Shown here one piece after another: positions 44,535 through 49,086 of a DNA stretch of 64,000 bases (positions are counted from its first letter, which is position 1; every line of letters begins with the position of its first letter). The stretch comes from Naegleria gruberi (Eukaryota). The translations under genes and the position numbers were made by a program. The DNA lies in the NCBI GenBank assembly GCA_000004985.1, contig GG738849.1; one strand, written 5' to 3'. The notes under the pieces were generated by a model. It was not told where the DNA came from, did no database searches, and saw only the letters and a program-made list of their open reading frames with translations.

Positions 44535-45041
44535 ATGAGCTCATCAGCCATCGTGACCAGTCCATCAAAGGCTGCCTCTAAACAAGCACCATCAAATGCT
44601 CAATCTACCACCAAACGTTTGCAATCCGAGTTGATGAATTTAATGATGTCCAAGACAGCTGGTATTACAGCCTTTCCGGAAGAAGGTAATATGCTCAAAT
44701 GGACAGGTACATTGAAAGGATGCGAAGGTACATGTTATGATGGACAATCGTACAAACTCTCCCTCTCCTTCTCTAATGACTATCCATTCAAGGTTCCAGT
44801 TGTAAAGTTTATCACACCAATCTACCATCCAAATGTAGATCAATTCGGAAACATTTGTTTGGATATCTTGAAGGATAAGTGGTCTGCCACATATAATGTT
44901 AGAACTATTCTCATTTCTATACAATCATTGATGAATGATCCAAATATTGAAGATCCATTGAATGGTGAAGCTGCTCAAAATTATGCTGACCCTGTCGAAT
45001 TTAAGAGATTGGTTGATTTGACCTATCAAAAGAAACAATAA
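44535..45041 (+). CDS. UBE2C: Ubiquitin-conjugating enzyme E2 C (UbcH10/Ube2C-like, APC/C-associated E2)
   Basis: UBC fold with HPNVDQFGNICLDIL active-site Cys. N-terminal ~30-aa extension (KRLQSELMNLMMS) typical of E2-C. 168 aa. Confidence 0.8.
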   Translation: MSSSAIVTSPSKAASKQAPSNAQSTTKRLQSELMNLMMSKTAGITAFPEEGNMLKWTGTLKGCEGTCYDGQSYKLSLSFSNDYPFKVPVVKFITPIYHPNVDQFGNICLDILKDKWSATYNVRTILISIQSLMNDPNIEDPLNGEAAQNYADPVEFKRLVDLTYQKKQ

Positions 45042-45238
45042 GAAACTGAGGTGTTTCACTTTCCATTTTTACAAACATTTGTTAAAAACAAAAGATGAGC
45101 GTAATAGCAATACTCTTTAATGTACAAAATAAATCTAACTGAACAATTTCATGAATTTCTTTCCTATTGTTTTATTGTGTGATGCTGAAATCTTATAAAT
45201 AATATTGAATAAATTATTAATTAATAAATTTGAAAAAA

Positions 45239-46567
45239 ATGTTACAAGGAGAAAATGGAGCTGGGCAGCAATCATTACACGAAAAGGAAAAACAACGATC
45301 CAGATTAACTACACTGCTCCGACATTTATCACCAAATGTTTTCAAGGTGAAGGAATCAATTAATAATTTACAACAATCATCAAACTCTTCTCTGAACACT
45401 TCCGAATCATCCGAACGTGATAATCCTCAAGAAAATATTCAAAATGAAGAAGATATCATGTTACCAGTGAAGGCTCTCTTCCACAGCATGAAAAATCCAT
45501 CCAATAGAAATTCTCAACAAAATTTTGAAGAGTCTTTTCGTTCTTCTATGAATTCAATGCCCAATAGTGGATTATCAAAAGAGGAAATTAATAAGAAACA
45601 GAACAAGTGGAATATTGGATTTCCTGCAACTGATGTCAAAGCAACCCTATTCTCTCGGGAAATGGAAAGAGTTTACACAAGTACAAAACCACTCAATCCG
45701 AGAAGTGCATTAGTTGAACAGCCAAAGGGTGAACCACCAGATATTGATAAGGTTTTTGGAAGTAAGAAGGGTCAGGGTGGTCACGTTTGCATTGTTGGAC
45801 CAACTGGTTCAGGAAAGTCAACCATTGTGAGAGGTATTCTATGTGAAATGTCTGCTGAAAAGGCATTGGCAATTTATTCATTGGAATATCCTGTTGAAGT
45901 GAATTTACAAACCCACGGCTTGTTTAATGTTTGTCAAATTGATATGTTTCAAGAAATTCAAGGAAAACAAAGATCCCTTGCAGAAACAGCCAATAATTTA
46001 CTCAAACATGATCCAGATATTATCTATTTTGGTGAATTGAGACATAAGGTGGATTTTGAAACAGCAACCTCAATAGCTCTCAGTGGTGTTCAAGTTATCA
46101 GTACAGGACATGCTTCTTCACCAATCGATTTGTTGGAAAGACTAAAGTCAATGAATATTGATTTGAAAACTCAATTCAGAGCTTTCAAATGCATTATGGG
46201 AGTTAAGCGTGTCCCTATTTTATGTCCACATTGTAAGAGAAATATGGTAATTTATGGTAGAACTGATAATAGAGCACTCAAATTGCTGACCATGTATAGA
46301 GTTGTCACCACAGAAAAAGTGAATAGAAGAAAGGAAGTACCCGTAGTTTGCATGCCACCTGAACCATCGAATAGTAAGGGTCAGACATGTCCTCACTGTG
46401 TAAATGGCTACATCAGTAATCATACCATTTATGAGTTTTTATACATTACACCTGAATCTGATATGGAAACACTTCGTAAGAAGCATACTTACACAACAGA
46501 AGAAACCCTTCTGTCCCTCATTATGCAAGGTCAAGTCAATCCAATGTATTTACAGAACAGTGTTTAA
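45239..46567 (+). CDS. gspE: Bacterial-type GspE/PilB/PilT-family (type II secretion / type IV pilus) ATPase homolog, eukaryote-encoded. Candidate mitochondrial T2SS (miT2SS) GspE, C-terminal-domain type.
   Basis: Walker A GPTGSGKST. Asp-box-like LEYPVE (the bacterial consensus is EDPIE). Walker B DIIYFGELRH (cf. GEIRD). His-box region ISTGHASSP. C-terminal tetracysteine CPHC-x50-CPHC, as in GspE. The ~180-aa N-terminus is unrelated low-complexity sequence and an N1E/N2E domain is not evident. ATG at 45239 in AAAAAAATG context; same codon usage and AT-rich flanks as neighbouring genes. Confidence 0.7.
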   Translation: MLQGENGAGQQSLHEKEKQRSRLTTLLRHLSPNVFKVKESINNLQQSSNSSLNTSESSERDNPQENIQNEEDIMLPVKALFHSMKNPSNRNSQQNFEESFRSSMNSMPNSGLSKEEINKKQNKWNIGFPATDVKATLFSREMERVYTSTKPLNPRSALVEQPKGEPPDIDKVFGSKKGQGGHVCIVGPTGSGKSTIVRGILCEMSAEKALAIYSLEYPVEVNLQTHGLFNVCQIDMFQEIQGKQRSLAETANNLLKHDPDIIYFGELRHKVDFETATSIALSGVQVISTGHASSPIDLLERLKSMNIDLKTQFRAFKCIMGVKRVPILCPHCKRNMVIYGRTDNRALKLLTMYRVVTTEKVNRRKEVPVVCMPPEPSNSKGQTCPHCVNGYISNHTIYEFLYITPESDMETLRKKHTYTTEETLLSLIMQGQVNPMYLQNSV

Positions 46568-46787: not shown

Positions 46788-48297
46788 ATGACCACCATCA
46801 CACACTTCTTTGTTCTCTCATCAAGAGGTGATAAAATTATAGCACGTAACTGTATGTACACTCACCACTAATATATCACCAACAATTATACTAAACACCA
46901 AAAATCACAGATCGTTATGATATTTTCGATGAAGTAGAGGATTTATTCTTCCGTAATGTTCGTAACGAAAGTATGGAAAACTATGGAAAGCCAATTTTCA
47001 ATCAACTAGGAATTAATTTCTTCCATGTTCGTAAATCAGGATTATATATTGTGTGTACAAGTAGAGAAAATTGTTCACCAATAACAATTTTTGAATTATT
47101 GGAACGTGCTTGTATTTTAATTAGAGATTTTACTGGTCAATTGAGTGAAGATTCGATTAGAAAGAATTTTGTAATGGTTTATGAATTATTGGATGAATTA
47201 TTCGATTGGGGAAAGGTTCAAACAACTCAAACCAACATTTTAACATATTGTATTCACAACGAACCGATTGAAACTGTTGATGTTCCGACTACAGCTGGTT
47301 TATTGAATTTAAGTTTTATTGATCCAAAAACTGTCAAATCAACAGCAAGTATGTATTTAATTGTGTTTTTTAATTTAACATTCTAACGTTAATTAATTGC
47401 AATTAATAATAATTGATGATTATTTTAAAATTATTATTGGAAACTTGATTTTTAAACACAGCTTGTTTGCCAATTCAAAAGAAGAATGATCAAATTTTCG
47501 TTGATGTTTTGGAACGTATAAATTGTGAAATGAATGCAGAGGGATCAGTTTTGCGTTCGGAAATTATTGGATCGATTGTTGTGAAGAGTTACTTGATGGG
47601 ATCTCCACTGATTCGTATTGCATTGAATCAAGATTTAGCTATTGGAACAGATACAAACACACCATACTCTGCCATTAGAGTTGATGCTTTGAATTTTAAT
47701 GAAATTATCAATAGAGAGGAATTTGAAATGGGTCGTCAATTGTCATTCTATCCACAAGATGGTGAAACTACTCTTCTTTCATATAGAGTTACCAACAATC
47801 ATCACGTCATTATGCCATTTAGAGTTTCACCTTACATTTCCAAATTCAATGAATATAAGATTGAGGCATCATTCAAAGTGAGATCTGACTTCCCTGCTTC
47901 TACATCTGCCACAGGAGTTTTTGTTCGTATTCCAGTACCAAAGAATGCCACATCATGTGGTGTAGTTATTGGAAATGATAAGGAAACTCAGCAATCGTAC
48001 GAATATAAGGAAAAGGATAAGGTTGTCATTTGGGGTATTAAGAAATTCCCAGGAGCTTCTGAACAATTTATCAAATTGAGAATTACTCTTCCTGAACCAA
48101 ATCGTATTGATGAGAGGAAGCTTATTGGGCCAGTCTCTATGAAATTTGAAATTCCAATGCACAATATGAGTGGTCTCCAATTGAGATATTTGAAAATTGG
48201 AAATGACAGTCTCAATAACGATAACAAGAACAAACAAAAACGTTGGGTTAGATATGTTACTCAAGCAGGTTCATACTGTGGAAGAGTTTCCATGTAA
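46788..48297 (+). CDS. Adaptor-protein complex mu subunit (AP mu-adaptin; AP-3/AP-4-like short-linker type). Exons 46788-46851, 46911-47348, 47462-48297.
   Basis: ATG at 46788 (AAAAAAATGACC). GTATGT donor at 46852, CACAG acceptor at 46910 (59 nt). GTATGT donor at 47349, ACACAG acceptor at 47461 (113 nt). Spliced 445-aa product has a longin-like N-terminus (MTTITHFFVLSSRGDKIIARNYRYDIF...SIRKNFVMVYELLDELFDWG) and a mu-homology domain ending WVRYVTQAGSYCGRVSM (cf. AP2M1 WVRYIGRSGIYETRC). Confidence 0.75.
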
Positions 48298-48345: not shown

Positions 48346-49086
48346 ATGATTGAAAATTTGAAAAATAAAAAAAATAAATTTTTACGATTAAAAAAATATT
48401 CAACAACAAACATGCCTGCTCTTCCAAAGAAATTGTTGCAACAAAATCTTGTTGAAAAGTGGAAATTAGTGAAAGGAGATTTAGTTCAAATCACTACCGG
48501 AAAGGATGCCGGAAAGAGAGGTGTTATTAAAAAGGTTTTACGTGATAAGAATAGAGTTGTAGTTGATGGTTGTAATTTGGTTAAAAAGAATATTAAAAGA
48601 ACTGAAGAAAGAGCCGGTTATTCAATTATGAAGGAATCTCCACTTCATTGTAGTAATGTTGCATTGGTTTGTCCAGAAACTGATAAAGCCACTAAAGTTG
48701 CTTGGCGTTATATGGAAGATGGTACCAAAGTAAGAATGGCCAAGGAAAGTGGTTCTGTTATTCCAAAGCCTGAACCAAAGAAACGTGTCAAGAGACCAAG
48801 CAATCCATACAAAGATACAGACTCTGATGAAGTTATTAGAAAAACTTGGACTGATGAGGAACAACAACAATTGGTGAATTATTATCTTATCAAATTTGAA
48901 AAACAACATTTGAACCATCTCAAACAAGTTTCTCAAAATACTGAAAAGGCCGAAATGAAGAAGGAATTGGACGAAAAATTATTCCAAATGAGAGCATTGA
49001 AGAGAGCCAAGGAAATTATTGGCGAAGAACAACTTGCATCATCCATGTCGGAATTGAATTTGGAAGAAAAACCAACGAATTTATAA
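48346..49086 (+). CDS. Mitochondrial ribosomal protein uL24m (KOW domain) with C-terminal extension
   Basis: KWKLVKGDLVQITTGKDAGKRGVIKKVLRDKNRVVVDGCNLVKKNIKR...SPLHCSNVALVCPETDKATKVAWRYMEDGTKVRMAKESG is collinear with bacterial L24. Basic presequence-like N-terminus. Confidence 0.75.
   Translation: MIENLKNKKNKFLRLKKYSTTNMPALPKKLLQQNLVEKWKLVKGDLVQITTGKDAGKRGVIKKVLRDKNRVVVDGCNLVKKNIKRTEERAGYSIMKESPLHCSNVALVCPETDKATKVAWRYMEDGTKVRMAKESGSVIPKPEPKKRVKRPSNPYKDTDSDEVIRKTWTDEEQQQLVNYYLIKFEKQHLNHLKQVSQNTEKAEMKKELDEKLFQMRALKRAKEIIGEEQLASSMSELNLEEKPTNL

Follow-up and report, generated by a model that had tools for sequence, protein, structure and literature searches.

What is a gene for a bacterial-type secretion ATPase doing among the nuclear genes of Naegleria gruberi (N. 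gruberi), and which machine does its product serve? The question is raised by positions 45239–46567 of a 64,000-nucleotide stretch of contig GG738849.1 (assembly GCA_000004985.1; the whole stretch is called the window below). A preliminary description had placed there an open reading frame (ORF) of 445 amino acids for a GspE/PilB-type ATPase, and had read it as a likely component of the mitochondrial system that goes back to the type II secretion system of bacteria (miT2SS). The ORF is real and runs uninterrupted on the plus strand. Its length of 445 residues applies from a TTG (45230–46567); counted from the ATG at 45239, it encodes 442 residues and a stop. The context of this ATG is AAAAAAATG, with AAAAAA directly before it. 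By exact-sequence look-up, all 442 residues of the window protein are those of XP_002681638.1 (EFC48894.1; UniProt D2V2G5), and both this accession and this sequence are given as N. gruberi GspE (NgGspE) in Supplementary Data 1 of Horvathova et al. (2021; Nat Commun 12:2947, PMC8134430), where the protein is flagged “M” for its presence in the mitochondrial proteome. The published NgGspE and the window gene share their sequence, with zero difference, and their scaffold neighbors, and are the same gene. Since the protein is identical to one published as mitochondrial and as part of this system, the miT2SS reading is supported. It is therefore also already known, the identical protein having been published and partly characterized in 2021. 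We are confident, on this evidence, that the window gene is the nuclear-encoded GspE of N. gruberi, the ATPase of the miT2SS. The point that is possibly new, and apparently undescribed, concerns the N-terminus of the protein, which carries a signal resembling the type 2 peroxisomal targeting signal (PTS2) that is common to six miT2SS families.

According to the miT2SS proposal, a type II secretion machine of bacterial origin was retained by the first mitochondria and persists in a few protist lineages. The study behind it began with the discovery of GspD, GspE, GspF, and GspG in N. gruberi (Horvathova et al., 2021). The gene described here is among the observations on which that story was founded, and its own product is the protein published in 2021. 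In that work, NgGspE fused to GFP was mitochondrial in yeast, and all five Gsp proteins fell in the mitochondrial cluster of the N. gruberi proteome. Eukaryotic GspE was found to consist of the CTE domain only, without N1E, whilst a resemblance to N2E was noted in two other proteins, GspEN2A and GspEN2B, and a third, GspEL, is an inactive paralogue of GspE (Horvathova et al., 2021). The authors proposed a GspE–GspEN2A heterodimer, an account repeated in a 2023 review (PMC10128026), and they observed that the GspE orthologue of Gefionella interacts with itself in a bacterial two-hybrid assay (BACTH; Horvathova et al., 2021).

Comparison with protein families and structures led to the same family and bore out the earlier assignment to the GspE/PilB-type secretion ATPases. 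Residues 181–414 score 89.4 bits with Pfam T2SSE (PF00437), for which the gathering cut-off is 24.9 (E = 2.4e-25), the top NCBIfam model is GspE (PRK10436, 85.5 bits), and the closest relatives by sequence in the PDB are Vibrio cholerae (V. cholerae) EpsE, PilT, and PilB (~1e-12). When a profile of the eukaryotic orthologues was compared with a bacterial GspE/PilB profile in hhalign, 212 columns were aligned with a probability of 99.8 (E = 4.1e-28), pairing residues 166–406 with bacterial positions 298–510 of 562. An AlphaFold model built from 14 orthologues has a mean predicted local distance difference test score (pLDDT) of 70.7, with block means mostly of ~70–93 over residues 181–440, and in Foldseek it comes closest to PilF, PilB, and GspE (E down to 7.6e-20). 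The match to T2SSE begins only at profile position 143, T2SSE_N gave no match in the Pfam search, and neither N1E nor N2E was detected in the chain by Pfam or by hhalign, which covers residues 166–406 only; the earlier remark that these domains are not evident thus holds. Among the GspE/PilB assembly ATPases, the window protein is one that has the CTE only; its superfamily is T2SSE, and its orthogroup is the published one of eukaryotic GspE.

Orthologues from N. fowleri, N. lovaniensis, Willaertia, Acrasis, Malawimonas, Gefionella, Andalucia, and others are 53–81% identical to the window protein in a MAFFT alignment (alignment A1), and a metagenomic sequence (P0020) is 48% identical. Bacterial matches follow after the eukaryotic ones in the database search, where E falls to 1e-18, and the best of them reach only about 29–33% identity over 25–41% of the query. 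The top-scoring bacterial relatives (P0021–P0026; 79–85 bits, against at most 68 for GspE/PilB) are proteins of ~710–770 residues annotated as PilT/PilU-like, mostly from metagenome-assembled genomes of Alphaproteobacteria, and not canonical GspE. They apparently hold two ATPase-like halves; their match spans only the core from Walker A to the His box and may say nothing on origin.

The catalytic motifs were located in a second MAFFT alignment (alignment A2), which sets the eukaryotic orthologues beside bacterial GspE, PilB, and PilT-like proteins, and their coordinates are collected with those of the other features in Table 1. Walker A, the Walker B glutamate, and the two CPHC pairs are present, as had first been noticed. 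The Asp box of the aligned eukaryotes reads [LM]-E-[YFS]-P-V-E, in which E216, P218, and E220 do not vary between bacteria and eukaryotes, whereas the aspartate of the bacterial proteins is Y, F, or S in every aligned eukaryotic sequence and tyrosine in the window protein. Within Walker B, D258, P259, D260, G265, E266, and R268 are invariant, and the bacterial aspartate that follows the arginine is H, N, or T in eukaryotes, here histidine. Both changes had been noted before as features of this copy; they are indeed present, but they are conserved in the aligned eukaryotic orthologues and not peculiar to it. A loss in the His box had also been rightly noticed, but had been ascribed to the second histidine. 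In all aligned eukaryotic sequences, valine (Val284 here) stands in place of the first histidine of the bacterial box (T-G-H), while H291, in S-T-G-H-A, is invariant and aligns with the second (S-T-[LI]-H-T-N; STLHTN). R301 and E399 are likewise invariant in alignment A2. Finally, the four cysteines C329, C332, C384, and C387 fall on the CxxC...CxxC of the bacterial sequences, which have a shorter spacer between the two pairs.

Table 1. Features of the N. gruberi GspE gene and its neighbors, in coordinates of the window
Feature	Residues	Position	Strand	Basis or remark
N. gruberi GspE, very probably the miT2SS ATPase; complete intronless coding sequence		45239..46567	+	ORF list; XP_002681638.1 identity
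PTS2-like RLTTLLRHL-SP	22-32 (nonapeptide 22-30)	45302..45334	+	Consensus match; conservation in alignment A1
Poorly conserved, low-complexity linker, predicted disordered	~46-127	45374..45619	+	Model pLDDT; alignment A1
Eukaryote-conserved segment NKWNIGFPATDVKATLFSREMERVY, just before the ATPase core	122-146	45602..45676	+	Alignment A1
GspE/PilB-type CTE homology	166-406	45734..46456	+	hhalign; Pfam T2SSE, residues 181-414
Walker A GPTGSGKST	187-195	45797..45823	+	Invariant in eukaryotes and bacteria
Asp-box equivalent LEYPVE	215-220	45881..45898	+	Alignments A1 and A2
Atypical Walker B DPDIIYFGELRH	258-269	46010..46045	+	Alignments A1 and A2
His-box equivalent LSGVQVISTGHAS	281-293	46079..46117	+	Alignment A2
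First Cys pair CPHC of the putative zinc-binding tetracysteine subdomain	C329/C332	46223..46234	+	Alignment A2; hhalign
Second Cys pair CPHC	C384/C387	46388..46399	+	Alignment A2; hhalign
UQ_con E2, annotated UBE2C (XP_002681637.1)		44535-45041		GspE neighbor
Adaptor mu subunit (AP-mu), two exons		46973-47386 and 47467-48297		GspE neighbor
Mitochondrial L24-like gene, after AP-mu		48346-49086		Window ORF of 246 residues

Set beside ATPases of known structure, the window protein shares with bacterial GspE/EpsE (V. cholerae 1P9R and 4KSR; V. vulnificus 4PHT) the CTE domain, Walker A, the E-x-P-x-E of the Asp box, the G-E-x-R of Walker B, the second His-box histidine, conserved arginines, and the tetracysteine of the putative zinc site. 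It differs in the absence of N1E and N2E, the Asp-box tyrosine, the first His-box valine, the longer insert between the Cys pairs, and a eukaryote-specific N-terminal extension of ~165 residues, and is only ~22–23% identical to them. The extension ATPases of type IV pili (T4P), PilB and PilF (5OIU, 5IT5, 5TSH), are the best structural matches (E = 7.6e-20 to 1e-17); they have the core fold and the zinc subdomain in common with the window protein and differ from it as bacterial GspE does, but the NCBIfam PilB model scores below that for GspE (60 vs. 85 bits). GspEL has a homologous nucleotide-binding domain, and N. gruberi GspEL matches the GspE gene at 23% identity in tblastn. Its Walker A, Asp box, and Walker B are abrogated and its zinc subdomain is absent, whereas the window protein retains these; its N-terminal motif (RLTSLLSHL) is of the same kind as that of GspE.

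Several points weigh against the identification as the ATPase of a secretion system. The protein scores far under the curated cut-offs for bacterial GspE (85.5 vs. 617 for PRK10436; 67.9 vs. 630.25 for TIGR02533), and because these equivalog cut-offs are failed and N1E and N2E are lacking, it is best called GspE-derived and stands outside the bacterial GspE equivalog. Foldseek places T4P PilF and PilB slightly above GspE, and type II secretion and T4P ancestry are not always decidable for Gsp proteins (Horvathova et al., 2021). Targeting predictors see no mitochondrial presequence in NgGspE (Horvathova et al., 2021; Supplementary Data 1). The Asp-box aspartate and the first His-box histidine are replaced in all aligned eukaryotic orthologues, which could alter or weaken catalysis, and the ATPase activity, hexameric state, and partner binding of Naegleria GspE are properties that we infer, as is the existence of a substrate.

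The second of these groups of observations bears on the possibility that the protein is a PilB-like ATPase of a type IV filament with a non-secretory role, such as a pilus-like fiber for the handling of organelle membrane or DNA. Besides the ranking by Foldseek and the inability of bacterial models to assign some Gsp proteins to type II secretion over T4P (Horvathova et al., 2021), the scores of the NCBIfam models TfpB, ComGA, and PilB, which are near that of GspE, speak for such a role. Nevertheless, the GspE model is the highest among the NCBIfam models, and GspE co-occurs with the secretin GspD, the platform protein GspF, and a GspG-type pseudopilin (Horvathova et al., 2021), so that we regard a non-secretory filament as unlikely.

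The active-site substitutions bear on a different possibility. The preliminary description had asked whether the protein is a regulatory or a split subunit, and the split half of that question is answered by the published account, in which GspEN2A would supply N2E (Horvathova et al., 2021). The regulatory half would make GspE a catalytically dead pseudo-ATPase, which scaffolds or regulates without hydrolyzing ATP. It could draw on the change of the Asp-box aspartate to tyrosine, of the first His-box histidine to valine, and of the aspartate after the Walker B arginine to histidine, as well as on the presence of an inactive paralogue, GspEL, in the same system (Horvathova et al., 2021). We nevertheless consider an inactive subunit improbable, and distinctly so, because the catalytic residues are invariant: the Walker A lysine, both Asp-box glutamates, the Walker B glutamate, R268, R301, and H291 are the same from bacteria to eukaryotes. 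Moreover, the truly degenerate copy of the system is the separate GspEL, only 23% identical to GspE. The substitutions look like a stable variant of the active site, and not like decay, because they are fixed across jakobids, malawimonads, and heteroloboseans in sequences that are 53–81% identical, as would be expected of a working enzyme.

As an active ATPase of the miT2SS, imported GspE would assemble as a hexamer at the inner membrane, facing the matrix, and would dock there on GspF, with the missing N2E presumably supplied in trans by GspEN2A. Hydrolysis of ATP by GspE would then drive GspG to polymerize as a pseudopilus within the intermembrane space, and the growing pseudopilus may push cargo through the outer-membrane pore made by GspD. 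This model of function is that of the published accounts (Horvathova et al., 2021; PMC10128026).

How GspE would reach the matrix is a question to which its N-terminus may hold part of the answer. In alignment A1, among full-length orthologues, R-x-x-x-L-L-x-H-L-x-P is the only conserved island in an otherwise variable N-terminal extension, and in the AlphaFold model it sits in a predicted helix of residues 12–30. The classical PTS2 consensus is (R/K)(L/V/I)X5(H/Q)(L/A), with RLQVVLGHL as the model signal, found for example in thiolase. A refined consensus is reportedly R-[LVIQ]-x-x-[LVIHQ]-[LSGAK]-x-[HQ]-[LAF]. RLTTLLRHL of GspE satisfies both, and it is the only strict PTS2 match in the 17,175 residues of the ORFs of the window. 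Like the PTS2 of thiolase, the Gsp motif is N-terminal, but the Gsp proteins that carry it are mitochondrial by experiment (Horvathova et al., 2021).

A like element is present near the N-terminus of GspE, GspF, GspG, GspEL, GspEN2A, and GspEN2B in the sequences of Supplementary Data 1 (Horvathova et al., 2021), in jakobids, malawimonads, and heteroloboseans, and also in hemimastigotes for those families that they possess. To put numbers to this, we counted motifs in the first 59 N-termini of the six carrier families (80–96 residues each), with 39 sequences of GspD, GspDL, and GspDN1–3 as the control. The refined PTS2 pattern, which was fixed a priori, occurs in 18 of the 59 carriers, where 0.23 are expected from shuffled sequences, and in none of the 39 controls. 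A relaxed pattern finds 56/59 carriers and 0/39 controls (0.37 expected), but it was fitted after seeing the data and is therefore circular and descriptive only. Across the 59 instances, position 2 is L, V, or I in 52, position 5 is L in 46 and I in 10, position 8 is H in 46 and Q in 13, and position 9 is L in 35 and I in 13, with I, V, or M being frequent there. Proline stands at position 11 in 39 instances, so that x-P usually follows the nonapeptide, and the element as a whole extends past it as x-P-[RNK]-phi.

An independent database search recovered the motif in 15 of 20 eukaryotic GspE homologues, including those of Willaertia, Acrasis, and N. lovaniensis and environmental sequences; the five that lack it are shorter (279–347 residues) and may be N-terminally incomplete. 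It was absent from the first 120 residues of all 100 bacterial matches. The families that carry the motif are those whose products should lie at the matrix or the inner membrane, whereas the families without it are those of the outer membrane or intermembrane space. Among the associated Gcp proteins, Gcp8, Gcp10, and Gcp11 lack the motif. Gcp9, at its N-termini (e.g., IMFPRVIDN), and Gcp12, internally (e.g., FLFPRVLNN), share an element phi-phi-F-P-R-phi, similar to the Gsp motif in its downstream half (H-L-F-P-R-V) but without the arginine and the His/Gln. We also considered that the motif might be the leftover of a bacterial N1E helix, with which MAFFT aligns it (LAELCKHLGLEF), and rejected the idea, since the unrelated GspF and GspG carry the same motif. 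A PTS2-like motif in Gsp proteins is not mentioned in the 2021 paper, its supplement, its preprint, or the 2023 review, and literature searches turned up no other account of one, although a prior description elsewhere is possible; the term PTS2 occurs only once in the 2021 paper (Horvathova et al., 2021).

A reader of such an element, if it has one, may be sought in the system itself. Gcp1–3 share its phylogenetic profile and, as WD40 proteins, have their nearest relative in Pex7, the receptor for PTS2, and an unexplained link of the miT2SS to peroxisomes has been stated (Horvathova et al., 2021). In the sequences of Supplementary Data 1, Gcp1 ends in -SKL in three heteroloboseans and elsewhere in -AKL, -ARL, or -PRL, all resembling the type 1 peroxisomal targeting signal (PTS1), and GspDN2 likewise has PTS1-like tripeptides at its end (-PRL, -SRL, or -ANL), which score high in a PTS1 predictor (Horvathova et al., 2021). 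A Pex7-like protein that is itself a ligand of Pex5 would be reminiscent of the way in which Pex7 and Pex5 act as co-receptors. UniRef gives the name “Peroxin-7” to the Gcp1 orthologues of N. fowleri and N. lovaniensis. In a phmmer search of the PDB with N. gruberi Gcp1, WDR24 came first (6.5e-21) and yeast Pex7 reached only 4e-13 over 82 residues, and Pfam assigned Gcp1 to generic WD40 families.

From these sequence comparisons, we tentatively propose that the conserved Gsp element, R-[LVI]-x-x-[LI]-phi-x-[HQ]-[LIV]-x-P, could be a PTS2-derived signal read by the Pex7-like Gcp1–3, a hypothesis that we think has a reasonable chance of being right, though less than an even one. If it is true, the miT2SS took over a receptor module of the peroxisomal type for its targeting, assembly, or shuttling, and reading by a Pex7-like receptor would explain the “peroxisome link” of the system. 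A motif of 9–11 residues on six families is a direct handle on miT2SS targeting in heteroloboseans, where predictors see no presequence, and on the role of Gcp1–3, and makes both the targeting and the link to peroxisomes experimentally approachable.

The same motif can be taken at face value, as a working PTS2 that makes GspE wholly or partly peroxisomal: the match to the consensus is perfect, it stands at a typical distance from the N-terminus, and several associated proteins have the PTS1-like ends described above. The amphipathic R-phi-x-x-phi-phi helix may also resemble the presequence element that binds Tom20, which would count against a peroxisomal GspE. In proteomic data, GspEL, with its RLTSLLSHL, did fall in the peroxisomal cluster, but NgGspE fell in the mitochondrial and not in the peroxisomal one, and the location of NgGspE-GFP was mitochondrial in yeast, an organism that has a PTS2 pathway (Horvathova et al., 2021). 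Residence of GspE in peroxisomes is, in our estimate, very improbable, and a mitochondrial GspE remains the reading that we prefer.

The nuclear origin of the gene follows from its setting. The annotated genes on its two sides, UBE2C (XP_002681637.1) and NAEGRDRAFT_62991, are N. gruberi genes, and the UBE2C and AP mu-adaptin flanks that had been recognized earlier are both confirmed (44535–45041 and 46973–48297); these eukaryotic genes lie within 200–400 bp of GspE. The GC content runs across the locus without a break, the GC content at third codon positions is 0.28 for GspE and 0.20–0.36 for its neighbors, and, by tetranucleotide distance from the average of the window, GspE ranks at the 22nd percentile of window segments of its size, so that the break in k-mer composition at 45.0–46.7 kb that a chimera might have left is not seen. 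For the GspE orthologues of N. fowleri and Willaertia magna (W. magna), the contigs measure 814 kb and 1.0 Mb, and Noc2 and Arf genes adjoin GspE in both. The gene of N. fowleri (L001, 6001–7642) takes up 1642 nucleotides for 510 residues, which implies an intron, and that of W. magna (L002, 6001–7341) is intronless, like the N. gruberi gene. The gene thus lies in nuclear DNA that is ordinary for N. gruberi, in line with the earlier judgment that contamination is unlikely. The idea that the ORF stems from a bacterium or a chimeric contig, and not from the Naegleria nucleus, could appeal to an otherwise bacterial protein family and to the want of an intron, but it has a negligible probability and is excluded for practical purposes by a composition and codon usage indistinguishable from those of the neighbors, by eukaryotic genes close on both sides, by orthologues on long eukaryotic contigs in three other heteroloboseans, one orthologue being spliced, by a best bacterial match of only about 29–33% identity over less than half of the query, and by the exclusion of an endosymbiont by fluorescence in situ hybridization (Horvathova et al., 2021).

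Between the PTS2-like motif and the ATPase core, the linker has a pLDDT below 50 over residues 46–95, 97–100, and 102–127 and is gappy and variable in alignment A1. It is followed by a predicted beta-hairpin of residues 131–152 (ending at 45694), which overlaps the eukaryote-conserved segment of residues 122–146, with strands at 131–139 and 144–152 and a block-mean pLDDT of 76–81 in the AlphaFold model. MAFFT sets residues 128–150 opposite the last beta-hairpin of N2E in bacterial GspE (D-[VI]-R-x-S...G-E-[RK]-x-V), and by this alignment GspE may retain a stub of N2E before its core; the hhalign alignment begins only at residue 166 and does not reach there, and we do not claim a remnant N2E hairpin.

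No other miT2SS gene was found in the window by tblastn with 13 N. gruberi Gsp and Gcp proteins (GspD, DL, DN1–3, F, G1, G2, EL, EN2A, EN2B, Gcp8, and Gcp9), the only match being to GspE itself, through GspEL. N. gruberi GspG1 is XP_002681672.1 (Horvathova et al., 2021; Supplementary Data 1), 34 accession numbers past GspE, and the two genes probably share the same 850-kb scaffold, with GspG1 outside the window. The Noc2/Arf synteny is common to N. fowleri and Willaertia and is not that of N. gruberi (UBE2C/AP-mu), which implies that the locus has been rearranged. A gene for an NKAP-domain protein also lies near GspE, and the rest of the window contains actin-like, Cluap1/IFT38, AATF, SPRY, ABCG, P-type ATPase, and NAGPA genes; a tRNA scan of the window found no tRNA genes. 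The two AP mu-adaptin ORFs are separated by a short intron of ~80 nucleotides. For the L24-like gene beyond them, the NCBI product is only a partial one of 109 residues, against 246 for the ORF in the window, and its gene model looks truncated.

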